Part shown: piece after piece, positions 3,019-31,119 of the stretch
How positions within the stretch are numbered: the stretch's first letter is position 1
Layout of the letters: every line of letters begins with the position of its first letter
IMG/VR virus record: IMGVR_UViG_3300042465_005116
Span: 128,001 to 192,000 of that record
Reading direction: 5' to 3' (one strand)
DNA length: 64,000 bases
Source of the DNA: a virus
Taxonomy: Duplodnaviria; Caudoviricetes
Notes under the pieces: model-generated
Database searches by the model: none
Seen by the model: the letters and a program-made list of their open reading frames with translations, nothing else
Told to the model about the DNA's origin: nothing
Translations under genes and position numbers: made by a program

Positions 3019-3531
3019 TTATAATTTAATCTCAAAACGATTTTTCATTTGTTCTAACTTATCAGCAGGAACTCCATGTTGATTTACTCCACCATGTCTA
3101 TTCTCTACTATAATAGTGAATACCATATAACCATACTTTTCAGCTAACTTAAAATATTCTTCCATCTCCCATTCTTGAGTAAATGTATTTGATACTACAA
3201 TCTCTGGATAGAATTGTGGATTGACTTCGTTATCTTTCATACGAATTTCGACTTGTTCTTTACACCACTTATGTGCATCTTTTATTTTAGAACCATCAAA
3301 ATTATAGTTTCCTTCTTTATCATAAAAGAATTTATCTGCTTCACAAATTGCGTAATCATTCCAAATGAATCCGGCTAATGTTGATTTACCACTTCCTGGT
3401 AATCCCCTTACTAATGTTAATACTTTTGGTATCATATATTTTATTTCTTGTTTATCAATAAACTCTTTTATAGCTTGTCGTTTTTCATCATTGAATACAT
3501 CTTCCAATTTAATTTCTTGTTTAGTTTCCAT
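3019..3531 (-). CDS. P-loop polynucleotide kinase-like protein (AAA_33)
   Basis: Walker A GLPGSGKS, EADKFF, VVSNTFTQEWEM, ENRHGGVNQHGVP; alternative start at 3435. Confidence 0.8.
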   Translation of the reverse strand: METKQEIKLEDVFNDEKRQAIKEFIDKQEIKYMIPKVLTLVRGLPGSGKSTLAGFIWNDYAICEADKFFYDKEGNYNFDGSKIKDAHKWCKEQVEIRMKDNEVNPQFYPEIVVSNTFTQEWEMEEYFKLAEKYGYMVFTIIVENRHGGVNQHGVPADKLEQMKNRFEIKL

Positions 3532-3537
3532 ACCATT

Positions 3538-4191
3538 TTATCTATAATTTTCAACTATTTCGTGGTGGTCAAACACAAACATACTTTTGATTGGTTGTTT
3601 ATTCATCAATCTTAATATCTCACTCATTTCAATTGGATACAATTCGTTTCCATCACATCCCACATCCATCATTTTACCCGAACCAATTCGTTTATCAGCC
3701 GGAAAGTGAACGTGTCCATGCAAATGGATAGCTCCCCTAGCCATATTATCCCAACTTGCTATTGGAAAGTGCATTAGAGCGAATCTTTGTTCTCCCATTA
3801 AAGGAGTCCCTACATTCCACTTAACAACTAAGTTTAAGTATTTGTTTACGGAACTAAATAACTTTTGACAACCTTCTTTATCACTTTCAATGTGATGGTC
3901 GTGGTTACCGGTAATGATGTGAACATTTTTACAAAAAATGCTATCTCTGAATTTTTGTATTTGTTCGAATCCTCCAAAACTCCAATCACCTAAATGGAAA
4001 AGGATATCATCCTGTTCAACCTTTTCGTTGATGTTAGCAATAAGGTGTGAGTTCATTTGTTCCAATGATATGAATTCTCTACACGTTACGGGGTCTGACC
4101 ATTGGGTTGTAGATGAACATATATTAGCATGGTTGTAGTGGGTATCACTTGTGAACCATAACCTTTGTCCTTTGTTTAGATTTAATTTCAT
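3538..4191 (-). CDS. calcineurin-like metallophosphoesterase
   Basis: SDTHYNH, HLGD, GNHD, HLHGHVH motifs. Confidence 0.85.
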   Translation of the reverse strand: MKLNLNKGQRLWFTSDTHYNHANICSSTTQWSDPVTCREFISLEQMNSHLIANINEKVEQDDILFHLGDWSFGGFEQIQKFRDSIFCKNVHIITGNHDHHIESDKEGCQKLFSSVNKYLNLVVKWNVGTPLMGEQRFALMHFPIASWDNMARGAIHLHGHVHFPADKRIGSGKMMDVGCDGNELYPIEMSEILRLMNKQPIKSMFVFDHHEIVENYR

Positions 4192-4207
4192 AACCTTTTC
4201 TTATAAC

Positions 4208-4239
4208 CAAATATACAAAAAAAACCTCACATTACCAAA
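4208..4239 (-). promoter_or_regulatory. Bacteroidota-type sigma-A promoter for the RNA-repair operon
   Basis: TTTG-N20-TATATTTG. Confidence 0.75.
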
Positions 4240-4262
4240 TAATTTATGAGGTTTTTTTATAG

Positions 4263-4336
4263 TGGACCAGATAGGATTCGAACCTATGACCTCAACATTA
4301 TGAGTGTTTTGCTCTAACCAACTGAGCTACAAGTCC
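4263..4336 (-). tRNA. tRNA (CAT), probably Ile2 (lysidine) or elongator Met
   Basis: Cloverleaf, loop CTCATAA, TTCGAAT T-loop, A73. Confidence 0.85.
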
Positions 4337-4385
4337 ATTATCGTTTAATCTAACGATAAAATCTGATATCGTTTCTTTCAACGAT

Positions 4386-4418
4386 AAAAAATAAGCAGGT
4401 GTGGAATCACCTACTTAT
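4386..4418 (-). terminator. intrinsic terminator
   Basis: ATAAGTAGGTG/CACCTGCTTAT hairpin followed by a T-run. Confidence 0.6.
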
Positions 4419-4474
4419 ATAGTGAATGAGAAACATATGAATCTCTTGCGGCTATATCACCAAAGCCCATTAGG

Positions 4475-4588
4475 TGCCGGAGGAAGGATTGGTTACCTAC
4501 ACGATTTCCTTACGGAGTAATCAACTTTTTACAAAGTCACGTCTCAAGGTTTACTACCCAAAGGGAATGCTCTTTCCGCCACTCCGGC
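4475..4588 (-). ncRNA. tRNA-Leu-like RNA lacking an anticodon loop
   Basis: Perfect 7-bp acceptor GCCGGAG/CTCCGGC plus A73; 35-nt D-loop; ACTTT-GTAA-AAAGT anticodon arm; long variable arm; degenerate T-loop. Confidence 0.6.
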
Positions 4589-4604
4589 ATATATCTTTTT
4601 TTTG

Positions 4605-4678
4605 TGGAGGTGATAGGAGTCGAACCTACTACCCTCTGCGTGCAAGGCAGATGCTCTAGCCAAATGAGCTACACCCCC
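4605..4678 (-). tRNA. tRNA-Ala(TGC)
   Basis: Cloverleaf, G3:U70, loop CTTGCAC. Confidence 0.95.
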
Positions 4679-4792
4679 CCAATTAATGTAATGTCTGTAC
4701 GGTTTGTATCTTATCCACACTTTTATTGTGTTTCATTAGTTTCCATTTCATACTTAGCGTCCGTTCCGTCATTCTTTCGAATCATTACATCG

Positions 4793-4878
4793 TACCAGAG
4801 GTGGGAGTCGAACCCACACGAGCGATTTATGCTCAACAGATTTTAAGTCTGTCATGTCTACCATTCCATCACTCCGGC
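4793..4878 (-). tRNA. tRNA-Leu(TAA)
   Basis: Class II cloverleaf, loop CTTAAAA. Confidence 0.95.
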
Positions 4879-4894
4879 ATTTATTCTAATTATC

Positions 4895-5329
4895 CTAATT
4901 TAGTTTACTTAATATTACCCCATTAAGTTTAGTATGATTATCATCTGGATTTATTAATATATCGATTTTATTTTTCCATCGCGGATTCATTAAATCCCTA
5001 ACGTAGTAAACTCCATTGTATTTTCCAGCATTTGACACTCTTACTTTTTCACCAAATTTAAATTTCTTTTTTATATCTCTACTTACTGCAATCACTCTAT
5101 GTTTTTTAGGATTATCCTCATCTAATTCAAAGCCACTCGCCGTTTCTAACGGAGTATCATCAGTTTGTAAAGGGTCAATTGTATATGTAGTCATCGTAAC
5201 AACAAATTTCTTAATTTCCTTAACAACCTCTTCCTTTACCATAGTTTCGATTTTGAATGGATTGGGTGGGGTTACATTTGATGGTAGGATTACCGCAGTA
5301 ATTAATAATATCAATATTAATCTTTTCAT
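4895..5329 (-). CDS. 3D (Asp-Asp-Asp) domain cell-wall protein with N-terminal signal/anchor
   Basis: TTYT...QTDDTPLETASG, IAVSRD, VRD...IDIL pattern. Confidence 0.75.
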   Translation of the reverse strand: MKRLILILLITAVILPSNVTPPNPFKIETMVKEEVVKEIKKFVVTMTTYTIDPLQTDDTPLETASGFELDEDNPKKHRVIAVSRDIKKKFKFGEKVRVSNAGKYNGVYYVRDLMNPRWKNKIDILINPDDNHTKLNGVILSKLN

Positions 5330-5368
5330 AATTTACATTTATGGTTAATAATAACTATTACACTTTTG

Positions 5369-5442
5369 TGATTCGGAAAGGATTCGAACCTTTGGCCTAT
5401 TCATTAGAAGTGAATTGCTCTATCCAACTGAGCTACCGAACC
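5369..5442 (-). tRNA. tRNA-Arg(TCT)
   Basis: Cloverleaf, loop CTTCTAA. Confidence 0.95.
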
Positions 5443-5447
5443 AAATC

Positions 5448-5612
5448 GTTGTTTCAACTTGCAAGTTTACTCTTAACATCTCTTTCTCTACAACGTCTGA
5501 ATTTAATCAACATTTGTAGTCCGAATGTAGCTTCTGGGTAATTACTCCAATGCTTCTATGTAACTCTATATAACTTACTTTGTTACTAAGTGTGTTAAGT
5601 GTATGAAACAAC
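5448..5612 (-). ncRNA. candidate 165-nt structured RNA between tRNA-Asp and tRNA-Arg
   Basis: Terminal 9-bp stem GTTGTTTCA/TGAAACAAC continued by TACACTTAACA/TGTTAAGAGTA; internal hairpins. Confidence 0.45.
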
Positions 5613-5615
5613 TTG

Positions 5616-5689
5616 CGGAATGTATGGGACTCGAACCCATGACCTCATCCGTGACAGGGATGCATTCTAACCAACTGAACTAACACTCC
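5616..5689 (-). tRNA. tRNA-Asp(GTC)
   Basis: Cloverleaf, loop CTGTCAC, G73. Confidence 0.95.
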
Positions 5690-5694
5690 AAATG

Positions 5695-5767
5695 AGCCTC
5701 CTGTCGGATTCGAACCAACGACCCCTTCATTACAAGTGAAGTGCTCTACCAACTGAGCTAAGGAGGC
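5695..5767 (-). tRNA. tRNA-Thr(TGT)
   Basis: Cloverleaf, loop CTTGTAA. Confidence 0.95.
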
Positions 5768-5855
5768 GTTTGATAGGTGACCCTCCTATCGTGAAACTAT
5801 ACATCGTTTCTTTTCTTTATAGAACTCTATTCAGAGAACTGCTGGAACATTTTTG

Positions 5856-5927
5856 TACTCCCAACGGGATTCGAACCCGTATTACTACCGTGAAAGGGTA
5901 GTGACCTAACCATTAGTCGATAGGAGC
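5856..5927 (-). tRNA. tRNA-Glu(TTC)
   Basis: Cloverleaf, loop CTTTCAC. Confidence 0.95.
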
Positions 5928-5946
5928 ATATAATTTTATAACAATG

Positions 5947-5978
5947 TAAAGATACGAAGAATATTCCACATATCCAAA
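5947..5978 (-). promoter_or_regulatory. internal sigma-A-type promoter in the tRNA array
   Basis: TTTG-N20-TATCTTTA. Confidence 0.7.
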
Positions 5979-5979
5979 T

Positions 5980-6441
5980 TTAATTGTGTATTTTTACTAA
6001 GTGGTCAGCAGCATAAGTTGCTATTGGCCCTAATGATTTATATCTTACTGAATACCCCATACCTTCAACCATACCCACTGCTTGTCTAAACACTTCGTTA
6101 GATTTAAAGCGTGGGTCTGGGTTCAAGTCAATATCAATCCACTTAGGTTTTGGAATACCAGCCTCGCGTAATTCTTCGGCAGTTTCAATTGCAAACCAAA
6201 CTTCTTGTAATAATCTAACTGAACGGATTCTTTCTCTTTCACTATTCCATCTTCTATACAATACATGTGCACCCTTTCCTTTTCTATATAAGGCAACTAC
6301 GATTGCATAAATAGTTTTGTTACCTGAATTTTGTGAATCACAACCAATTAAGATTTCTGCATCGGTATTCGTAATCATATATTCTTTGATATATGAAATC
6401 AATTCCACTTCTTCTGCCGTATACAATTTTTTATAAACCAT
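5980..6441 (-). CDS. RNase H-like protein (YkuK/DUF458 family)
   Basis: ILIGCDSQ, LLQEVWFAIETAE, IDIDLN, AADHLVK acidic motifs. Confidence 0.75.
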   Translation of the reverse strand: MVYKKLYTAEEVELISYIKEYMITNTDAEILIGCDSQNSGNKTIYAIVVALYRKGKGAHVLYRRWNSERERIRSVRLLQEVWFAIETAEELREAGIPKPKWIDIDLNPDPRFKSNEVFRQAVGMVEGMGYSVRYKSLGPIATYAADHLVKIHN

Positions 6442-6461
6442 AATTTTACCTTTTTATTTTG

Positions 6462-6536
6462 TACCCATAGTAGGACTCGAACCTACAATTGTGTGGTGTC
6501 TAAAGCCACTGCGTATTCCAATTCCGCCATACGGGT
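6462..6536 (-). tRNA. tRNA-Leu(TAG) with short variable region
   Basis: Leu-type D-arm GGCGGAATTGGAATACGC, loop TTTAGAC, 6-nt variable region. Confidence 0.85.
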
Positions 6537-6545
6537 ATATTTCAG

Positions 6546-6631
6546 CAGAGAGTGAGGGGCTCGAACCCTCGCGGCTTTAACACCCTAACGATTTAGCAAA
6601 CCGTCCCCTTCACCAACTTGGGTAACTCTCT
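6546..6631 (-). tRNA. tRNA-Ser(GCT)
   Basis: Class II cloverleaf, loop TTGCTAA, G73. Confidence 0.95.
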
Positions 6632-6633
6632 AT

Positions 6634-6710
6634 TGGGGTGATTAATGGGATTCGAACCCATACTATCAGTACCACAAACTGACGTGCTAACCATTAACAC
6701 TATAAACACC
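6634..6710 (-). tRNA. tRNA-His(GTG)
   Basis: G-1:C73 pair, loop TTGTGGT, encoded CCA. Confidence 0.95.
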
Positions 6711-6715
6711 ATATG

Positions 6716-6786
6716 TTGCGTGTTTGAGGTTTGAACTCAATTGGTCATCCTTATGAGAGATAACTCTTTTCCACTAAGCCACGCAA
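6716..6786 (-). tRNA. atypical tRNA (CAT), probable elongator Met
   Basis: Normal anticodon arm (CTCATAA) and T-arm, but the acceptor TTGCGTG/CACGCAA lacks the 8-9 linker. Confidence 0.6.
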
Positions 6787-6790
6787 TGTG

Positions 6791-6862
6791 AGGCGGGTAT
6801 TGGATTCGAACCAATGTTAAAGGTTTTGCAGACCTCCTCCTAACCACTCGAGACAACTCGCC
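6791..6862 (-). tRNA. tRNA-Cys(GCA)
   Basis: Cloverleaf, loop CTGCAAA, U73. Confidence 0.95.
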
Positions 6863-6927
6863 ATTATTTGTTGTTCACTTTTTTTGTTTGTTCACCGATA
6901 GTGAACACTCTAAATTTGTGAACATTG

Positions 6928-7000
6928 TAGTTCCATAAGGACTCGAACCCTAACTTTTTCATCCGTAGTGAAAGGTGCTATCCAATTACACCATAGAACT
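6928..7000 (-). tRNA. tRNA-Arg(ACG)
   Basis: Cloverleaf, loop CTACGGA. Confidence 0.95.
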
Positions 7001-7006
7001 ATTTTG

Positions 7007-7077
7007 CACCCCCTGAAAGATTCGAACTTTCATCTGCGGTTTTGGAGACCGATATGCTACCATTGCACCAAAGAGAT
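7007..7077 (-). tRNA. tRNA-Trp(CCA)
   Basis: Cloverleaf, loop CTCCAAA, G73, wobble-rich acceptor. Confidence 0.9.
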
Positions 7078-7139
7078 GTATTATTAGTGTTCCAAAACTC
7101 TATTTTTTTGTTAGATTTGGAACACCAATAACCAAATTG

Positions 7140-7213
7140 TTGGTAATGCGGGATTCGAACCTGCCACCTTCTCGGTATCAGCGAGATGCTCTAACCAAAT
7201 GAGCTAATTACCA
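7140..7213 (-). tRNA. tRNA-Ile(GAT)
   Basis: Cloverleaf, loop CTGATAC. Confidence 0.95.
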
Positions 7214-7219
7214 ATGTTG

Positions 7220-7295
7220 TCGGATAAGCAGGATTCGAACCTGCGTGCTCCACATCCCAAATGTGGCGAGATAGACCTGACTCCTCTACTATCCG
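7220..7295 (-). tRNA. tRNA-Pro(TGG)
   Basis: Cloverleaf, C1:G72, loop TTTGGGA. Confidence 0.95.
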
Positions 7296-7301
7296 TTATT
7301 G

Positions 7302-7375
7302 TGAACCCGAATGGACTCGAACCATTGACTCCCTCATTAAAAGTGAGGTGCTCTAACCAACTGAGCTACGAGTTC
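7302..7375 (-). tRNA. tRNA-Lys(TTT)
   Basis: Cloverleaf, loop CTTTTAA. Confidence 0.95.
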
Positions 7376-7381
7376 ATTCTG

Positions 7382-7454
7382 TGGAGAAAGTTGGTTACGC
7401 TCCAACTCCTGTGGATTTTCAGTCCACTGCTTCTACTAAGTTAGCTTCTTCTCC
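7382..7454 (-). tRNA. tRNA-Phe(GAA) with non-canonical T-loop
   Basis: Loop CTGAAAA; T-arm GTTGG-AGCGTAA-CCAAC. Confidence 0.85.
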
Positions 7455-7461
7455 TATTAAG

Positions 7462-7543
7462 TGCCTGCAGATGGACTCGAACCACCGAACTCCGAAGAGA
7501 GGAGATTTACAGTCTCCAGCAATTGCCACTATGCGATACAGGC
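7462..7543 (-). tRNA. tRNA-Tyr(GTA)
   Basis: Class II cloverleaf, loop CTGTAAA. Confidence 0.95.
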
Positions 7544-7589
7544 TAATTGAGTTGTATTCCAAATTCGAATTTGGAATAATTTCAAATTG

Positions 7590-7663
7590 TAGAAGATATA
7601 GGATTCGAACCTATGACCCTTTGGATGTAAACCAAATGCTCTAACCAACTGAGCTAATCTTCT
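7590..7663 (-). tRNA. tRNA-Val(TAC)
   Basis: Cloverleaf, loop TTTACAT. Confidence 0.95.
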
Positions 7664-7669
7664 ATGTTG

Positions 7670-7741
7670 TTACTCGAATAGGATTCGAACCTATACTACA
7701 TCAGTCAAAGTGAGGTATGCTAACCATTACACCATCGAGCA
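7670..7741 (-). tRNA. tRNA-Gln(TTG)
   Basis: Cloverleaf, U1:A72, loop CTTTGAC. Confidence 0.9.
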
Positions 7742-7748
7742 ATTTATG

Positions 7749-7820
7749 AGCGGATGATAGGAATCGAACCTACGTCTCCTACTTGGAAGGAAGGAGTAAT
7801 AACCATTATACGACATCCGC
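7749..7820 (-). tRNA. tRNA-Gly(TCC)
   Basis: Cloverleaf, loop CTTCCAA, U73. Confidence 0.95.
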
Positions 7821-7832
7821 ATGTCAAAGAAC
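7821..7832 (-). promoter_or_regulatory. boxA-like antitermination element
   Basis: GTTCTTTGACAT in the Asn-Gly spacer; resembles rrn boxA. Confidence 0.5.
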
Positions 7833-7838
7833 CAATTG

Positions 7839-7910
7839 AGGGAAGGGAGAATTTCGAAATCTCGACCTGATGATTAACAGTCATCTGCTCTGCCTCTGAG
7901 CTACCATCCC
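7839..7910 (-). tRNA. tRNA-Asn(GTT)
   Basis: Cloverleaf, loop CTGTTAA. Confidence 0.95.
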
Positions 7911-7917
7911 ATAAACG

Positions 7918-7951
7918 AAAAAACCCTTAACTTTTTTATCAGTTAAGGGTT
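7918..7951 (-). terminator. intrinsic terminator (candidate attenuator) directly upstream of tRNA-Asn
   Basis: 11-bp stem AACCCTTAACT/AGTTAAGGGTT, 8-nt loop, T-run. Confidence 0.75.
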
Positions 7952-7981
7952 CTTAAAATATTGTTATAAAATTTTTACATT

Positions 7982-8104
7982 CTATCCACGTTTTACATCC
8001 CTTAACTTACTTCTATCCTCAATCATATTGAAGACACGATTGCCACCCCAAGCACATTTCTGTGTCGGTAGATAACTAAGCGTATGTATTGTTAAAGTTG
8101 CCAT
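7982..8104 (-). CDS. candidate leader peptide MATLTIHTLSYLPTQKCAWGGNRVFNMIEDRSKLRDVKRG (40 aa)
   Basis: ATG 8104 to TAG 7982; overlaps an anti-terminator-compatible AGTTAAGGG at 7999-8007. Confidence 0.6.
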   Translation of the reverse strand: MATLTIHTLSYLPTQKCAWGGNRVFNMIEDRSKLRDVKRG

Positions 8105-8242
8105 TGTGTATAAGTATATTAAAAACTAATTTATGTTTGTTTTTGTGTTAATAAAATAAAAAAAAGTAACTCATCTTCAATATGCACCATCCATGTCATG
8201 CACTGGTTGACAAAAGCCTCGATAAATTACTTAGTATTTTTT

Positions 8243-9127
8243 AAAAAAATCTGGATGAGAATACTCCATCTTATGAACCAGCTTTATAAGGGTTATTGGT
8301 TACCTTAATTTCCACTACCTTTTGAGTAGTACCGATTCAATGTGGGTAAGTAATGCCTACCAATCATAAAGTTACAACCTACTCTCTTTTTACTCCGCCA
8401 CTTCGAATCTGCCGACCCGATTCACATCTCGCGATGCTAGAAGTTTTTCGAAAGAATCACATTTACCTTGAGAGTATTTGTGGCAGTGAACGACTCACTA
8501 CTATGTACACACCTTTCACTTGCAACTGGTAACCACTTTTTCTTTTATTTTTATTTGATTTTCACCATTGAAAGTAAAAGTTTTGGTTTGTAGAAGAATT
8601 CAAGTAGTGGATTACCACTAGCTCCGTTCCATTTTGAAGAACGGAATACTATACTACTCGATACGATATCCCTATCGTCATATTTTAAGTCTACTTCATA
8701 TCTAAACCTTTGGTAAAGTAAAGATAAGGATAATAACAACACCACTTGTACATCATCATACCTTTCGATTTTAAGTAAACTTTCATATTGAATCACGCAA
8801 TGATATGGAGAGATTAAGTCCGTACTTCTTGCAATAACTCTATGGATTATTCTTATTGGTGTCCCCACCTCAACTGAACTTCTACCTAGCCCAGTCATTA
8901 AACCATTTCACTACGGAGTTACCCTCACTAATCAGGTCTAATGATATTCCACTTGCATACTCAAGCTCCATTCCTTTCGGTCTGAAACCGCAAATTAATT
9001 AACCAACTAATTCACTTTATCCTACTTTCGTAGTTTATTTAACCACCATATGCGGCGGGTATGTACTATGTACCACAAGGATACTATGTACAATATGTTT
9101 CGATAATTTAAAGAACTTTTTTTTGTT
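8243..9127 (-). ncRNA. large ornate non-coding RNA, GOLLD/ROOL-like
   Basis: ~880 nt without a credible ORF, between a promoter (9132-9163) and a hairpin plus T7; many GNRA hairpins; next to tRNAs. Family not verified. Confidence 0.6.
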
Positions 9128-9131
9128 AAGT

Positions 9132-9163
9132 CAAAGATACGAAATCTTTTTCACTTTTCCAAA
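9132..9163 (-). promoter_or_regulatory. sigma-A-type promoter of the large ncRNA
   Basis: TTTG-N20-TATCTTTG. Confidence 0.8.
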
Positions 9164-9237
9164 TTTATTTTAAACTTTTTTTTGTTATGTCTAATACCGA
9201 GTATCTTTCATCGCCTATAAGTTTAGAACTAACTTTG

Positions 9238-9269
9238 TAAAGATACGAAAACATTTTCACATTTCCAAA
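9238..9269 (-). promoter_or_regulatory. sigma-A-type promoter (tandem)
   Basis: TTTG-N20-TATCTTTA. Confidence 0.7.
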
Positions 9270-9341
9270 TCTTTTTTTAATTATTTTTTGTGATATTATA
9301 TATAAGTATATAAAAATATACCAAACGTAAAATAATCATTG

Positions 9342-9413
9342 TAGCGGGTGAAGGATTCGAACCTCCGACCTATAGGTTATGAGCCTACCGAGCTACCACT
9401 GCTCTAACCCGCA
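9342..9413 (-). tRNA. initiator tRNA-fMet(CAT)
   Basis: Unpaired 1:72 (T:T), GAGCAGTGGTAGCTC D-arm, loop CTCATAA. Confidence 0.9.
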
Positions 9414-9434
9414 ATATAATTTTAAAGAACATAA

Positions 9435-9540
9435 AACAAAGTAAGATAATGATATCCGGCGTTATAGTTTACCACTTATGGTTGGACTTCACACATTCGG
9501 TTTTATTAGATGTTGGCTTCAACCACTATCTTATTTTGTT
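9435..9540 (-). ncRNA. candidate 106-nt structured RNA upstream of tRNA-fMet
   Basis: 16 of 17 terminal positions pair; begins just after the promoter at 9545-9576. Confidence 0.45.
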
Positions 9541-9544
9541 AAGT

Positions 9545-9576
9545 CAAAGATACGAAAACATTTTCATATTTCCAAA
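9545..9576 (-). promoter_or_regulatory. sigma-A-type promoter
   Basis: TTTG-N20-TATCTTTG. Confidence 0.8.
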
Positions 9577-9589
9577 TCTTTTTTAATAT

Positions 9590-10036
9590 TTATTTTACTT
9601 TGTAAGATAATCCCAATCCTAATGTAAAATCATCACCAATTAAATTACCAATTCCCCATAAATTTATAACACTACTTGGTCTTAGTGGATTGTACATTAT
9701 AAGAAAATTTGGTTTATTACCATTAAGTGTAGGTTGTAATCCAAACCCAATAATCGCCTTATCCTCTTTTACTTGTCTAAGAACACCAAACTTCATATTA
9801 TCAGATACATTTCCTGTTTTGGTATTAACTCCCGGAGGAATTACTATTCCACCATTTTGTCCACCATATTCATCATACGGAAGTCCCGCATAAAATCCCC
9901 ATCCTTTTTTCATAAATCCACCTGTAATGTATCCATCAGATGGTCCACCCTTGCGGGTAGCGGTTATAAACCACTCTTGCCCTTTTGCATTAATACTTAT
10001 TCCGAGTATCAAAGCCATCACTAATAATTTTTTCAT
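9590..10036 (-). CDS. secreted protein, possible small outer-membrane beta-barrel
   Basis: Signal peptide MKKLLVMALILGISINAKG; Gly/aromatic beta-strand pattern, C-terminal LGLGLSYKVK. Confidence 0.6.
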   Translation of the reverse strand: MKKLLVMALILGISINAKGQEWFITATRKGGPSDGYITGGFMKKGWGFYAGLPYDEYGGQNGGIVIPPGVNTKTGNVSDNMKFGVLRQVKEDKAIIGFGLQPTLNGNKPNFLIMYNPLRPSSVINLWGIGNLIGDDFTLGLGLSYKVK

Positions 10037-10347
10037 AGTGCCTTTATGCTCTTTGTTTTTTCAAGAGAATCCTCTCTTATCCATTTTTGTTTTAACTTAT
10101 CTATTTTTTCAATTTTTAGGATTTTACCTTTAAGTGAGACAATCTCCTTCGTAACCTTTTCGGTACGAACCGTACGTGCAGCGAAATCTTCTTCGGTGAT
10201 TTCAATCAATTCTTTTTTTCGATTAAGAACTGATATTTCTTTTTGGATTTTTTCTATCGCTTTACCATCATTAATCAATGAGGGGTCGATAGAATTACCA
10301 ATACTATTAAAAAATAATAATATGGGTAAGGTAAGTTTTTCTAACAT
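10033..10347 (-). CDS. hypothetical coiled-coil protein with N-terminal hydrophobic segment
   Basis: 104-aa ORF. Confidence 0.55.
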   Translation of the reverse strand: MLEKLTLPILLFFNSIGNSIDPSLINDGKAIEKIQKEISVLNRKKELIEITEEDFAARTVRTEKVTKEIVSLKGKILKIEKIDKLKQKWIREDSLEKTKSIKAL

Positions 10348-10430
10348 TTGTAATCAATAGTTAAAAGTGTAACACATATAAATACATTATTATATATTTT
10401 TAATTAAATATATAACAATAATTTATTAAG

Positions 10431-10806
10431 TGGTGGAGGTGGAGGGAGTCGAACCCTCGTCCAAATACGGATTCAATAAACATCATTCACAAGCTTAGTT
10501 AGTTTTTCTTAACTAACAAAATATTCGGTTGGTTCTTCACCATCGGCAACCGATAAACAATGGGTGATTCGATTTTGGGTTCAATCACTTTTCCACCTTT
10601 GTACACATTCTTTTTAAAGTCCCACGATGTGTGCGGGAGGGATTAGGCTGCTATAGCGTAATCAGCACCTACGAAAGACATTACATCTTCGAAGGTCATT
10701 GTAGATAATTCTACGTCGTTTATTGTTCGATAGGTATTTACGGATTTCCATCTAACCCGGCTTGCAACTTACCAACTCATCGTACCTGTCAAAACCAGGC
10801 ACCCCC
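10431..10806 (-). ncRNA. ssrA: tmRNA
   Basis: 5' GGGGGTG...TTTTGACAG, 3' GGTTCGACTCCCTCCACCTCCACCA, G3:U70, tag ORF ending YAIAA*. Confidence 0.93.
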
Positions 10807-10808
10807 AT

Positions 10809-11495
10809 TTATTTTTTATTCAAAGAACGTTTAATTAAATTCTGAACCTTTTCATTTCTCAAATCAATGTACAACATTATAGTTGCTCTATATTCATTTG
10901 AGTAATTATACACATTATGATAATGATAAGAATTAAAATAATATGCTTTACCTACTTCTAATCTTTTTCTAAATATATTCGTAAACCAATCAGGTCTATG
11001 AAATCGCTTCCACCATTTAAATTCAGCCGAATCTACTACACAATATTCAAACTTTTCTGGTACTATAATTGGAATTTGAATAGTTAGTTCCCATTCTTCT
11101 TGTCCATGTTCCAATACGTGCGAGTGCCAAACTAAAGATTGTTTAGGTGCAATTCGCATCACCCTAGCTCTACTATCTAATTGGTTACCACTAATGTTTG
11201 CACATATCTCATACATATAAGGTATTGTGGATTCCAATTCGGTTTTCTGAAAGTTATATTGCTCAGTACCATCTTCGTACATATCTTTATACAAACTTCC
11301 ATCAGAACTAATCAATGAAATACCACTCCATGCTTTACGATACTTTCTTCGTACTTGCCAAAAGTTAGTTCTATAATCTTTGAATTTGTATTTGTTTTTT
11401 AACAATCCATATTCATCAATTAGTTTATCTAAATCAATATCAATGTCCAATTCTAAAAATGGAATACTTTTTAGTTGTTGTATAAGTTCATTCAT
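10809..11495 (-). CDS. 2OG-Fe(II)/cupin oxygenase, Asp/Asn beta-hydroxylase-like
   Basis: RARVMRIAP...WHSH, HNVYNYSNEYR; likely start MNELIQ (the ORF-track extension overlaps an RNA). Confidence 0.7.
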   Translation of the reverse strand: MNELIQQLKSIPFLELDIDIDLDKLIDEYGLLKNKYKFKDYRTNFWQVRRKYRKAWSGISLISSDGSLYKDMYEDGTEQYNFQKTELESTIPYMYEICANISGNQLDSRARVMRIAPKQSLVWHSHVLEHGQEEWELTIQIPIIVPEKFEYCVVDSAEFKWWKRFHRPDWFTNIFRKRLEVGKAYYFNSYHYHNVYNYSNEYRATIMLYIDLRNEKVQNLIKRSLNKK

Positions 11496-11507
11496 ATTAA
11501 TTAATTG

Positions 11508-11676
11508 CTGTAAGAGGAGGATTCGAACCATCCACGATGCGATTCAGTAAGTAACACTTTCTCCGGCCGGATGGTGGTCTACCCCATATTACTTACCTAT
11601 TTCGTTCTCACCACCCCCGAGACAGGAGGGCTTGTCTACCCGGTCATACTGAGACAACCTTTTCCAACACCTTACA
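11508..11676 (-). ncRNA. 169-nt tRNA-like RNA with GTC anticodon and expanded D-loop and variable arm
   Basis: Acceptor TGTAAGG/TCTTACA plus G73, D-stem TTG/CAA, CCCTC-CTGTCTC-GGGGG arm, ~80-nt variable arm, GGTTCGAATCC T-loop. Confidence 0.65.
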
Positions 11677-11772
11677 ATATATGAACTAACTCACTGGAAA
11701 CCTTATAATTGAATTCAATCAACTTATGGGTTAAGTACTCCGTTTATGTTAGTTCCTCGTACTCCAAGTTTG

Positions 11773-11857
11773 CAGAGAGTTAGGGATTCGAACCCCAGAT
11801 ACCTTTCAGTATGCCAGTTTTCAAGACTGGTGCCATCAACCACTCGGCCAACTCTCT
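11773..11857 (-). tRNA. tRNA-Ser(TGA)
   Basis: Class II cloverleaf, loop CTTGAAA, G73. Confidence 0.95.
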
Positions 11858-11865
11858 GTTTAATA

Positions 11866-12135
11866 TTATTGAATATGAGTTTCTTCGTTTCGAAGTGCTC
11901 TCACATCTAATGTAATATTTGATTGTCTTCTTCTTGCTTCTTCAGCTTCTTTATACCAACGAATCCAAGTTAAGGAAACATCAATTGGTGCAAGAACCCA
12001 TGCCATTACCACTACCATAATAGTATCCAATTCAGGAGAACCACCGATGGGGTCATTGCTGTATCTTTTATCTAAATTTTTAAATAATTGATAGAAACAA
12101 TAAAGAACACAAATAATGTAATACGTTAAAAACAT
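11866..12135 (-). CDS. hypothetical membrane protein
   Basis: Two hydrophobic segments. Confidence 0.55.
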   Translation of the reverse strand: MFLTYYIICVLYCFYQLFKNLDKRYSNDPIGGSPELDTIMVVVMAWVLAPIDVSLTWIRWYKEAEEARRRQSNITLDVRALRNEETHIQ

Positions 12136-12149
12136 ATATTAAATTTTAA

Positions 12150-12350
12150 TTAAACGCCTGAAGTTTTTACATCAACTAAAAAGTTTTTTAATCTTTCTAA
12201 TTTTTCAATCGTTGTAGTTGTTCCTGTAATTGGATTCAGTTCTAAAATAATATCATCTAATGATGCTGCAGTTACTAATAACGCATCGTCTTTAGAATTT
12301 AAATAGTTGTCTGAAATTCTGTACTTTTTGCAAATCTCTTGTAAGTTCAT
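12150..12350 (-). CDS. hypothetical protein
   Basis: Likely start MNLQEICKK at 12350. Confidence 0.55.
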   Translation of the reverse strand: MNLQEICKKYRISDNYLNSKDDALLVTAASLDDIILELNPITGTTTTIEKLERLKNFLVDVKTSGV

Positions 12351-12367
12351 ATTATTGTTTTTTTGTT

Positions 12368-13510
12368 TTAAATTAAAGCCCTTGTTTGTTTTGATTCTAA
12401 ATGCCAAAAATTATGTATTATATGTTGTCTATTACCAATCATTTTTAATTGTTTTAATAATACATTATATAGTGGATGTGATTCTTCTTGAACTGAACGG
12501 TCTTTTAACCATTCTTTTGTTTGATGATTCCAATCTTGTATTGCTCTAAATGTAATTGTATATCCATTTTCAGGACTCCACTTTCCATATATATCCTCAA
12601 TCATATTTACAAAATCATTCATTTCACGTACATTATGGTCTTGAACTACGAATGAAAAATTTCTATTATTAAATTTTAAGGTAGAATGATATTTTAAATT
12701 AGCCATTAAAGTATCCCAATTCCCATTTAACCTTACTTTATTTTCATATGTTTCTTTAGTTGCTGCATCAATTGATATTTCATATTCACGAACATATGGA
12801 TGAATTGGTTTAACCGATTCCCACATTTCCTGTGTCCACATATTTCCGTTTGAAACTATATAAATTTGTTTCAATTTTGGATATCGTTTGTAATCAAATG
12901 TTTGCATAAACTTTCTAAATACATTTGAATAAAATGGGTCACCACTACCTGTAATATGAATCATCTCAACCTCATTACTAAATTGTTCATTAATATCTTT
13001 TAAAATATTATCAACAAATTTATCTTTACGATTTGGTATAGTATCTAATCTACAAGATGGACATTTCAAATTACATGCGTAATCAAAATTAAAATAAATT
13101 AATTTTGGAAATAATTTCCATTCACTATCAGTTTCAGAAAGATTATATTTTTTAAAAAATTCTTCTCTCTTATAAAAGTATCCAAAATATACTGATTGTC
13201 CATAGTCCGATTCAAACTCATTTAATAATACCTTTTCATCAGTATTAATAAGTTTAGATAAAAATGGGCACTTAGTTTTTGAACAATATTTATATGAACC
13301 ATCTAAGATTCCTTCTCTTACCTTTGTATTAATATCATTAAACCAAACATCTTTTAATTCTTTAGTTTCACCGGGATTTAAATGAGACCAATCTTCAAAT
13401 GGAATATCCATCCAATCTGGACAACAACTCCAAGTCGAATTATGGAATACCATAAAATCTTCAAATGGTGCTCTACAAATATAGTTTTTTAAATTAACCT
13501 TCTCACTCAT
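12368..13510 (-). CDS. radical SAM protein with N-terminal Cys-rich (SPASM/twitch-like) domain
   Basis: CNLKCPSC (CxxxCxxC), ITGSGDPF, SIDAATKETYEN; N-terminal C...CC...C...C. Confidence 0.85.
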   Translation of the reverse strand: MSEKVNLKNYICRAPFEDFMVFHNSTWSCCPDWMDIPFEDWSHLNPGETKELKDVWFNDINTKVREGILDGSYKYCSKTKCPFLSKLINTDEKVLLNEFESDYGQSVYFGYFYKREEFFKKYNLSETDSEWKLFPKLIYFNFDYACNLKCPSCRLDTIPNRKDKFVDNILKDINEQFSNEVEMIHITGSGDPFYSNVFRKFMQTFDYKRYPKLKQIYIVSNGNMWTQEMWESVKPIHPYVREYEISIDAATKETYENKVRLNGNWDTLMANLKYHSTLKFNNRNFSFVVQDHNVREMNDFVNMIEDIYGKWSPENGYTITFRAIQDWNHQTKEWLKDRSVQEESHPLYNVLLKQLKMIGNRQHIIHNFWHLESKQTRALI

Positions 13511-20390: not shown

Positions 20391-20662
20391 AATATTAATA
20401 GGTGGTTATCTTCCATACCCCATAGATTCGGCGTATTTTGCTAATTGGATGCGTTCAATTAAATTCCGTTTTTCCGGTGTATCTGCAAACCACATACTTG
20501 AAACTCTATATTTCTTAGCCCAATGATTAAATTCTAACTTAGATACGTTAATTGTTGATTGTGTTTTTGCGTGTGTTTTCATTTTTTATCTTATTGTTTA
20601 TACTCAAATATACGAATAAAAATCGGTATTTCCAAATTTAAAATTAACTGATTGATTATCAA

Positions 20663-31047: not shown

Positions 31048-31119
31048 ATTATTAATTATTTATACCAAAGATACGAAAAGTATTCCATATTTCCAAATCT
31101 AAAAAAGAAGTACCCACCC

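Follow-up and report, generated by a model that had tools for sequence, protein, structure and literature searches.

A candidate leader-peptide attenuator encoding all 20 amino acids precedes a complete phage tRNA set

How does a phage that carries its own transfer RNA (tRNA) genes decide when to transcribe them? The question is raised by a locus in a 64,000-nucleotide stretch of DNA from a virus of the Caudoviricetes (Duplodnaviria; positions 128,001 to 192,000 of the IMG/VR record IMGVR_UViG_3300042465_005116), here called the window, in which a short open reading frame (ORF) and a hairpin with a T-run stand directly before an array of tRNA genes on the minus strand. A first-pass annotation, made from the letters of the window, had proposed that the ORF encodes a leader peptide containing all 20 amino acids and that it forms an attenuator together with the hairpin. 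The analysis of the window and of its relatives reported here makes it likely that the element is a ribosome-mediated (leader-peptide) transcription attenuator gating read-through into the complete tRNA set of the phage. The phage would then probably make its own tRNAs only when ribosomes struggle to decode. The sequence features themselves were observed directly, and from them we infer translation, termination, the kinetic competition and the physiological signal.

The leader ORF, of 40 codons plus TAG, was found at 7982-8104 of the minus strand, with its ATG at 8104 and its stop codon at 7984-7982, and encodes a peptide of 40 amino acids. A 27-nucleotide A/T-rich spacer lies between the ORF and a predicted terminator hairpin (7954-7919) made of a 14-pair stem with the core AACCCTTAACT/AGTTAAGGGTT and an 8-nucleotide loop, and the T-run occupies 7923-7918. 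The folding energy of the hairpin was −18 kcal/mol. The 5′ arm of the terminator, referred to as region 3 (7941-7954, minus strand), carries the core CCCTTAACT at 7949-7941 and would be common to the terminator and to an antiterminator, and the 3′ arm, referred to as region 4 (7918-7932, minus strand), reads AGTTAAGGG followed by six T. The segment AGTTAAGGG was also found inside the ORF at 8007-7999 of the minus strand (codons 33-35). This segment, region 2, is identical to the terminator 3′ arm and complementary to 7949-7941, and is proposed to be the 5′ strand of the antiterminator. When the codons of the window ORF were shuffled, a pairing to the terminator arm this strong was obtained in 0.3% of the shuffles. 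The ORF, the terminator and the copy of its 3′ arm within the ORF all lie where the first-pass annotation had placed them. Moreover, only seven bases (7917-7911) were found between the T-run and tRNA-Asn (7910-7838), leaving no room for a promoter and indicating that the array is transcribable only through the terminator.

Relatives of the element were sought by searches with the exact hairpin, with a degenerate peptide motif and with protein words, by a metagenome scan, and by a full hidden Markov model (HMM) search of 1.84 billion representatives. Approximately 30 distinct peptides of 38-55 amino acids were obtained from 51 loci in IMG/VR and in metagenome contigs of up to 288 kb, and their source was uncultured jumbo phages of fresh water. 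In every sufficiently long locus the order was the same: the ORF, a spacer of approximately 25-45 nucleotides, the hairpin with its T-run, and the tRNA array. In most loci tRNA-Asn began within approximately 10 nucleotides of the T-run (30 nucleotides in L041), the exception being L030, where a tRNA-Gln was found 140 nucleotides downstream. An equivalent of the hairpin with T-run was present in all 22 relatives analysed, with energies of −13.5 to −23.1 kcal/mol. No relatives were found in bacterial genomes, where the sole match was spurious and covered 11 residues, or in the GenBank phage set, and the tRNA island of the cultured Cellulophaga phage phi4:1 had no analogous ORF with all 20 amino acids. 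The HMM matches P0014, P0023 and P0024 were discarded as spurious matches to repeat proteins. The tail of the database protein P0018 was frame-shifted.

If the segment within the ORF is an antiterminator strand, its complementarity to the terminator should be kept in these relatives. For each of the 22 sequences, the best partner of its own terminator 5′ arm was therefore sought across the ORF, with its position unconstrained. In 22 of 22 sequences the best partner was the same codon-aligned segment, region 2, and in 18 of them it ended 13-14 nucleotides short of the stop codon. The pairing between regions 2 and 3 comprised 7-9 base pairs with an energy of −10.8 to −16.1 kcal/mol in 20 of the 22, and the codon-shuffle p value of each was between 0.001 and 0.095. 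Four Watson-Crick states of the helix were found (AGTTAAGGG:CCCTTAACT, GTTAGGG:CCCTAAC, AGTTAGAGG:CCTCTAACT and AGTTAGGGG:CCCCTAACT), and G.U intermediates between them were found as well. When the pairs were counted in an alignment of segments anchored only at the two ends, 94.9% of the cells were paired, and the pairing and covariation score was reached by none of 500 shuffles, a significance that is inflated by the relatedness of the sequences. In a control in which the partners were slid by 1-3 columns, 21-68% of the cells were paired. Three pairs had changed on both sides, and two of these were clean exchanges between GC and AU (17/4 and 13/7) with no one-sided breaks.

The residue encoded within region 2 was Arg, Gly, Glu or Val depending on the lineage, indicating that the constraint acts on the RNA and not on the peptide. 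In L033, L016-18, L039 and L041, region 2 reads AGTTAGAGG and the 3′ arm of the terminator reads AGTTGGGGG or AGTTAGGGGG, and the two, although different, both pair with region 3. It is thus the complementarity that is constrained, which argues against a shared protein-binding motif. The possibility that region 2 is a mere duplicate of the 3′ arm was ruled out by these lineages.

Is the reading frame needed at all? The helices are the best-supported features of the element, the region folds better than its shuffles (z = −4.1), and a large structured RNA, the GOLLD RNA, lies just upstream. All of this would suit an untranslated RNA switch or processing element, either a 5′ RNA or the 3′ part of the GOLLD RNA, in which a protein, a small molecule or an uncharged tRNA selects between alternative folds and the frame is incidental. 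The behavior of the frame makes this most improbable. The ATG was invariant, and the ORF was open in all complete loci despite a range of 38-55 codons, a count to which most members were contributed by translated searches that broken copies could have escaped. Insertions and deletions were all multiples of three, comprising a 13-codon deletion in the group of the window and one-codon events elsewhere, and the type of stop codon varied between TAG, TAA and TGA while its position was kept. The median pairwise ratio of nonsynonymous to synonymous substitutions (dN/dS) was 0.49 in frame, compared to 1.37 and 1.23 in the other two frames. Moreover, a composition of all 20 amino acids would be meaningless without translation, and the segment 7918-8140 matched no Rfam family, the T-box included, in a scan of 3500-13000 at E ≤ 1. 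Conservation, in-frame indels and dN/dS together argue for translation of the leader ORF. A further candidate explanation, that a chance ORF lies in the spacer between GOLLD and the tRNAs and that the hairpin is the GOLLD terminator, was ruled out by the conserved, frame-specific ORF of the relatives.

What, then, would a ribosome be reading? The claim that the leader peptide of the window contains all 20 amino acids was borne out, and the same was found for 28 of the 30 distinct peptides, an internal Met being present in 29 of the 30. Of 125 ORFs of 35-60 amino acids in the window, the leader was the only one with all 20 residues; with the amino-acid usage of the phage, a random 40-mer would contain all 20 at a frequency of 0.4-0.6% and a 53-mer at 3-5%. 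Residues 1-30 of the window peptide already hold all 20, for which the chance is 2e-4, and none of 10,106 windows of 30 residues from real proteins did so. Among representatives of less than 70% identity, 14 of 15 had all 20 amino acids, compared to 3.7 on average and at most 11 in 20,000 trials of column permutation, a procedure that breaks relatedness and so overstates the significance of the result.

The rare residues were found to change place. Cys was seen in four columns of the alignment and Tyr in six, whereas Gln and Arg are scattered over many. L002 has Cys and Arg interchanged between positions 17 and 23. In members without Q15 and C17 (PTQ.C changed to PTL.N), position 10 or 11 is occupied by Cys and Gln is found at another site, and the group of the window, which is without the segment that bears the only Val, Asp and Tyr of the 53-amino-acid forms, has Tyr11, Val24 and Asp30. 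This relocation is direct evidence of compensation. The placement of the residues was also regular: in 20 of 22 sequences the set of 20 is completed with 2-7 codons left before region 2 begins to pair, and four other short lineages are complete by residue 31-33. In the forms of 38-40 amino acids, 9-13 amino acids are encoded only once. As judged from these alignments, the all-20 composition, placed before region 2, is a conserved property under selection.

Alternatively, the conserved ORF could be the gene of some ordinary small protein of the phage, followed by a terminator of its own, in which case constitutive leak-through would account for expression of the array and the in-ORF segment complementary to the terminator arm would tune mRNA stability or terminator strength with no sensing of translation. 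Purifying selection on the ORF and the conserved N-terminus are what such a protein would show, and public gene callers do predict a hypothetical protein here. Yet no Pfam family matched the leader peptide, and a dN/dS of approximately 0.5 is high for a folded protein. The middle third is dispensable, as seen in the forms of 38-40 amino acids, yet the all-20 composition is kept. The residue at region 2 switches between R, G, E and V with the pairing kept, region 2 has a fixed spacing of 13-14 nucleotides to the stop codon, and the gene was never seen apart from a tRNA array. An ordinary small protein is for these reasons quite unlikely.

The N-terminus raises a different alternative, which keeps the RNA switch and takes nascent-peptide arrest as its signal. 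As in the TnaC, SecM and Erm leaders, the ribosome would be stalled by the N-terminal sequence (LHT..LPTQ.C.W.G[NI]RMF) when a specific ligand is present or the cell is in a specific state, and region 2 would be freed. Residues 1-28 were markedly more conserved than the remainder, H7, P13, T14, Q15, W19, G21, F25 and I28 being invariant in 16 sequences, and by geometry a ribosome halted around codon 25-28 would not cover region 2. However, several of these "invariant" residues change in distant members (PTQ to PTL, QSQ or PML, and C17 to N, R or K), and some of the conserved N-terminal stretch overlaps two RNA features described below, region 1 and the mid-ORF hairpin. No tool matched a known arrest motif, and arrest leaves unexplained the upkeep of all 20 amino acids through relocated Cys, Tyr, Gln and Arg. 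Nascent-peptide arrest is therefore considered unlikely as the signal.

Attenuation by a translating ribosome requires that the RNA can adopt alternative folds, and these were predicted from single sequences as minimum free energy (MFE) structures. In leaders ending before region 3, region 2 paired with nucleotides 1-30 of the ORF in 22 of 22 sequences. Of the 22 transcripts ending at the terminator loop, 21 had regions 2 and 3 paired, and in full-length leaders the pairing of regions 1 and 2 was found together with the terminator in 20 of 22. Region 1 (CTTTAAC, codons 3-5, at 8091-8097 of the minus strand) is the proposed anti-antiterminator partner of region 2 and also lies inside the footprint of an initiating ribosome. 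The folding models lend the helix between regions 1 and 2 moderate support. A further hairpin in the middle of the ORF (CC-CACA-GAAA-TGTG-GG, codons 13-19, at 8048-8068 of the minus strand) was seen by folding and by RNAalifold; it was predicted in 22 of 22 sequences with energies of −3.4 to −10.8 kcal/mol and per-sequence shuffle p values of 0.002-0.35. By eye, the variants CATT/AATG, ATGTT/AACAT and ATGCT/AGCGT keep the hairpin despite residue changes. It is our conjecture that it serves as an RNA polymerase pause hairpin. The geometry of leader ORF and antiterminator that the first-pass annotation had drawn from the window is supported by comparison with the relatives, in which the ORF is intact, the in-ORF segment covaries with the terminator arm, the element lies directly before the array, and staged folding gives the three alternative pairings.

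In anatomy the element resembles the classical leader-peptide attenuators with four segments, and from these features the following mechanism is proposed. In one fold, region 2 would pair with region 3 as the antiterminator, and transcription would read through; in the other, region 3 would pair with region 4 as the terminator and transcription would stop, region 2 being held by region 1 or lying under the ribosome. When translation is smooth, the ribosome would be at the last dozen codons, and then at the stop codon, before the polymerase completes the terminator. It would cover or unwind region 2, so that the terminator forms and the tRNA genes stay off. At the stop codon the trailing edge of the ribosome, approximately 12-15 nucleotides behind the P site, would overlap region 2, which fits the fixed spacing of 13-14 nucleotides to the stop codon. 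A ribosome delayed at an earlier codon would leave region 2 free to capture region 3, and the array would be transcribed. Since a ribosome would meet codons for all 20 amino acids before it came to region 2, and in the forms of 38-40 amino acids just a single codon for 9-13 of them, the element would report a shortage of any single aminoacyl-tRNA, whether caused by starvation, by phage- or defence-induced loss of tRNA or by a mismatch in codon usage. The phage tRNAs would then restore decoding and the switch would close. The use of single codons with no tandem runs suggests a response to near-complete tRNA loss rather than to mild starvation. A two-state variant without the helix between regions 1 and 2, in which no ribosome or a slow one gives read-through and a fast one gives termination, fits the data equally well.

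Several observations weigh against attenuation by decoding, in addition to the inflated shuffle significance mentioned above. The duplex of regions 1 and 2 (−6.4 to −9.2 kcal/mol) was no better than shuffles (p 0.04-0.26) or than pairings made between lineages. When RNAalifold was applied to a plain MAFFT alignment, only the mid-ORF hairpin and part of the terminator were recovered and no long-range helices, because indels in the arms were misaligned; the end-anchored segments were used instead. The helix between regions 2 and 3 was weaker in L029 and L030. The composition also has exceptions, Glu and an internal Met being absent from L028 and Arg from P0026, and in L033 the last residue type falls inside region 2. 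A leader with a single codon for each amino acid is much less sensitive than one with the classical tandem runs, and the conservation of the N-terminal LHT..LPTQ..W.G.RMF exceeds what a pure codon-content sensor needs. The leader codons did not differ from ordinary genes in their match to the phage anticodons (42.5% compared to 45.3%), a test that cannot discriminate since the phage tRNA set decodes essentially every codon. From the 3′ end of GOLLD to the ATG there was no promoter of the Bacteroidota type (TTTG...TAnnTTTG), and no promoter was found for the unit. Finally, the leader was covered only approximately threefold in metatranscriptomes, as assembled contigs that are blind to RNA ends. 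The first-pass annotation had also pointed to GC-rich codons atypical of the genome, a claim that proved weak: a codon-adaptation-like index put the leader at the 5.8th percentile of gene windows, the enrichment of rare codons was marginal, and its G+C content at third codon positions was ordinary (0.28 compared to 0.23 ± 0.09).

What does the switch stand in front of? ARAGORN and Rfam found 22 tRNA genes behind the hairpin (4262-7910, minus strand), with two ORFs interposed, and all 20 amino acids were covered, as was also the case in L002. The description of tRNA-Asn as the first of 16 consecutive tRNAs held in that tRNA-Asn is the first tRNA after the switch. However, tRNA-Met (9413-9341) and tRNA-Ser (11857-11772) lie upstream of the switch, as does a transfer-messenger RNA (tmRNA; 10806-10431), and ARAGORN counted 15 consecutive tRNAs up to the first intervening ORF, to which one weak match can be added. 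This tRNA-like match, at 6716-6785 of the minus strand between tRNA-Cys and tRNA-His, scored 22.9 bits against the Rfam tRNA model, below threshold. An RNase H-like protein (PF04308, E 2e-20) is encoded within the array at 5980-6441 of the minus strand. Directly past the last tRNA of the array, at 3019-4191 of the minus strand, a calcineurin-like phosphoesterase (PF00149) and an AAA_33 P-loop kinase were found, domains that are compatible with a putative RNA end-healing pair. The segment GGTTCTTTGACAT lies at 7821-7837 of the minus strand, in the spacer just 3′ of tRNA-Asn, and is kept in L002; shorter variants of it occur after tRNA-Asn in L003 and upstream of the first tRNA in L030.

On the other side of the leader lies the GOLLD RNA (8239-9074, minus strand), delimited by Rfam RF02032 and by metatranscriptome coverage, which is the context of the switch and not part of it. 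Its 3′ domain was matched at 8661-8252 (264 bits, E 6e-75) and ends approximately 150 nucleotides 5′ of the ORF. In four freshwater metatranscriptomes, 8239-9074 was covered approximately 200 to 30,000 deep, with a sharp drop at the edges. Of 20 related loci, 19 likewise had GOLLD upstream of the leader, and neither the leader nor the array was found downstream of the GOLLD copies of the 630-640 kb phages LR756502 and LR745206. A cryo-electron microscopy study of GOLLD describes it as lying near tRNA islands, with its function unknown (doi 10.1101/2024.12.08.627333). The tmRNA of the window (10431-10806, minus strand) scored 111.5 bits, and its predicted tag is unusually long, with 24 residues and the end AIAA; a tmRNA was also found 5′ of GOLLD in L003, L004, L009 and L016.

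Between the 3′ end of GOLLD and the leader, a second hairpin with a run of nine T was observed at 8150-8222 of the minus strand, and was kept in L002 with approximately 250 nucleotides inserted before it. This hairpin may act as another terminator and insulate the leader unit from GOLLD. In some relatives, the stretch between GOLLD and the leader (4630-5200 of L003, 3830-4370 of the minus strand of L004, and 760-1020 of L002) contains tRNA-like fragments with the T-arm-like segment GGTTCGATTCC. In L003 and L004 the same stretch holds a small lipoprotein-like ORF (MKKVLAIF...SCGG...), and in L035 and L042 there is a small called gene between GOLLD and the leader. Directly 5′ of the start codon, the alignments of the relatives showed a conserved A/T-rich motif, TATACTTATACACA (8105-8118, minus strand), which in most relatives has the form TATAyTTATA and lies 8-18 nucleotides 5′ of the ATG. 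This motif may be a −10-like promoter element or a translation-initiation region. As a recurring phage promoter it was unsupported, with two matches in the window compared to 1.1 expected.

The window as a whole contained 12 promoters of the Bacteroidota type TTTG-N17-22-TAnnTTTG, compared to 4.1 expected from shuffles, a threefold enrichment indicating that the host is probably a member of the Bacteroidota. One of them, at 9163-9132, precedes GOLLD. Four promoters, at 9132-9163, 9545-9576, 20605-20636 and 31066-31097 of the minus strand, share the consensus TTTGGAAA..TG.A......TTCGTATMTTTG. The largest protein was uninformative on the host, its only matches, of 36-41% identity, being to an uncultured 484-kb phage and a Microcystis phage.

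What would such a switch do for the phage? We tentatively suggest, as a possibility that we hold with less confidence than attenuation itself, that it acts as a one-shot "decoding self-test" by the pioneer ribosome, in which failure at any amino acid, for example after the action of an anticodon nuclease or host shut-off, would release the full phage decoding set. Together with the tmRNA, GOLLD and the putative RNA-repair genes, the locus would then form a counter-defence translation-rescue island. If this self-test is real, the synteny of GOLLD, leader and tRNAs would provide the first functional handle on GOLLD. Apart from the self-test, the locus places the GOLLD RNA in a defined operon context. 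If attenuation operates here, classical attenuation would control tRNA genes, and a leader would act as a general sensor of decoding capacity. Large phages would call on their tRNA sets as needed, under feedback from the ribosome and not by a fixed temporal programme, and phage tRNAs would be tied mechanistically to tRNA-depleting defences and to host shut-off. At approximately 200 nucleotides, the element could serve as a natural reporter of "translation health".

How does the element compare with attenuators that are already known? To our knowledge, leader-peptide attenuation has been known for amino-acid biosynthesis and a few synthetase genes, and always for one to three amino acids; we also know of little on leader-peptide attenuators in Bacteroidota. 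The leader-peptide attenuators of enterobacteria include the multivalent leaders of ilvGMEDA, ilvBN and thr and the single-amino-acid leaders trpL, hisL, pheL and leuL. The phage element shares with them a short leader ORF and a predicted intrinsic terminator just 5′ of the regulated genes, and an antiterminator that uses the 5′ arm of the terminator; in its predicted folds, an upstream segment may likewise sequester the antiterminator strand. The rule that would decide the outcome is also common to both, namely the position of the ribosome when the polymerase reaches the terminator. In contrast to the enterobacterial leaders, the phage element precedes tRNAs and not biosynthetic enzymes, and in place of tandem runs of codons for one to three amino acids it has single or few codons for all 20. 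Its region 1 adjoins the start codon, at codons 3-5, and it is viral, with a Bacteroidota-like host.

The closest parallels in function are systems that control the translation apparatus. In the pheST attenuator of Escherichia coli, which has the pheM leader, a component of the translation apparatus is likewise controlled by the decoding of cognate codons. However, that attenuator serves one synthetase and reads one amino acid through runs of Phe codons, controls no tRNA genes and is not viral. T-box riboswitches resemble the phage element in being terminator/antiterminator switches that report on the tRNA pool and govern translation-related genes. A T-box, however, binds one uncharged tRNA directly and needs no ribosome, whereas the phage element has a conserved ORF, and the Rfam scan described above found no T-box or specifier features at the leader. 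In the literature we came upon neither a leader-peptide attenuator placed in front of tRNA genes nor a leader containing all 20 amino acids.

As far as sequence comparison reaches, the phage locus has most of the features by which attenuators are recognized, among them a predicted terminator, a covarying antiterminator and, before region 2, matching regulatory codons. The 20 amino acids of the leader are matched by tRNAs for all 20 in the array, so that the regulatory codons correspond to the regulated products. What would set the element apart from the known attenuators is that the regulated genes are tRNAs, that the leader is pan-specific, and that the setting is viral.

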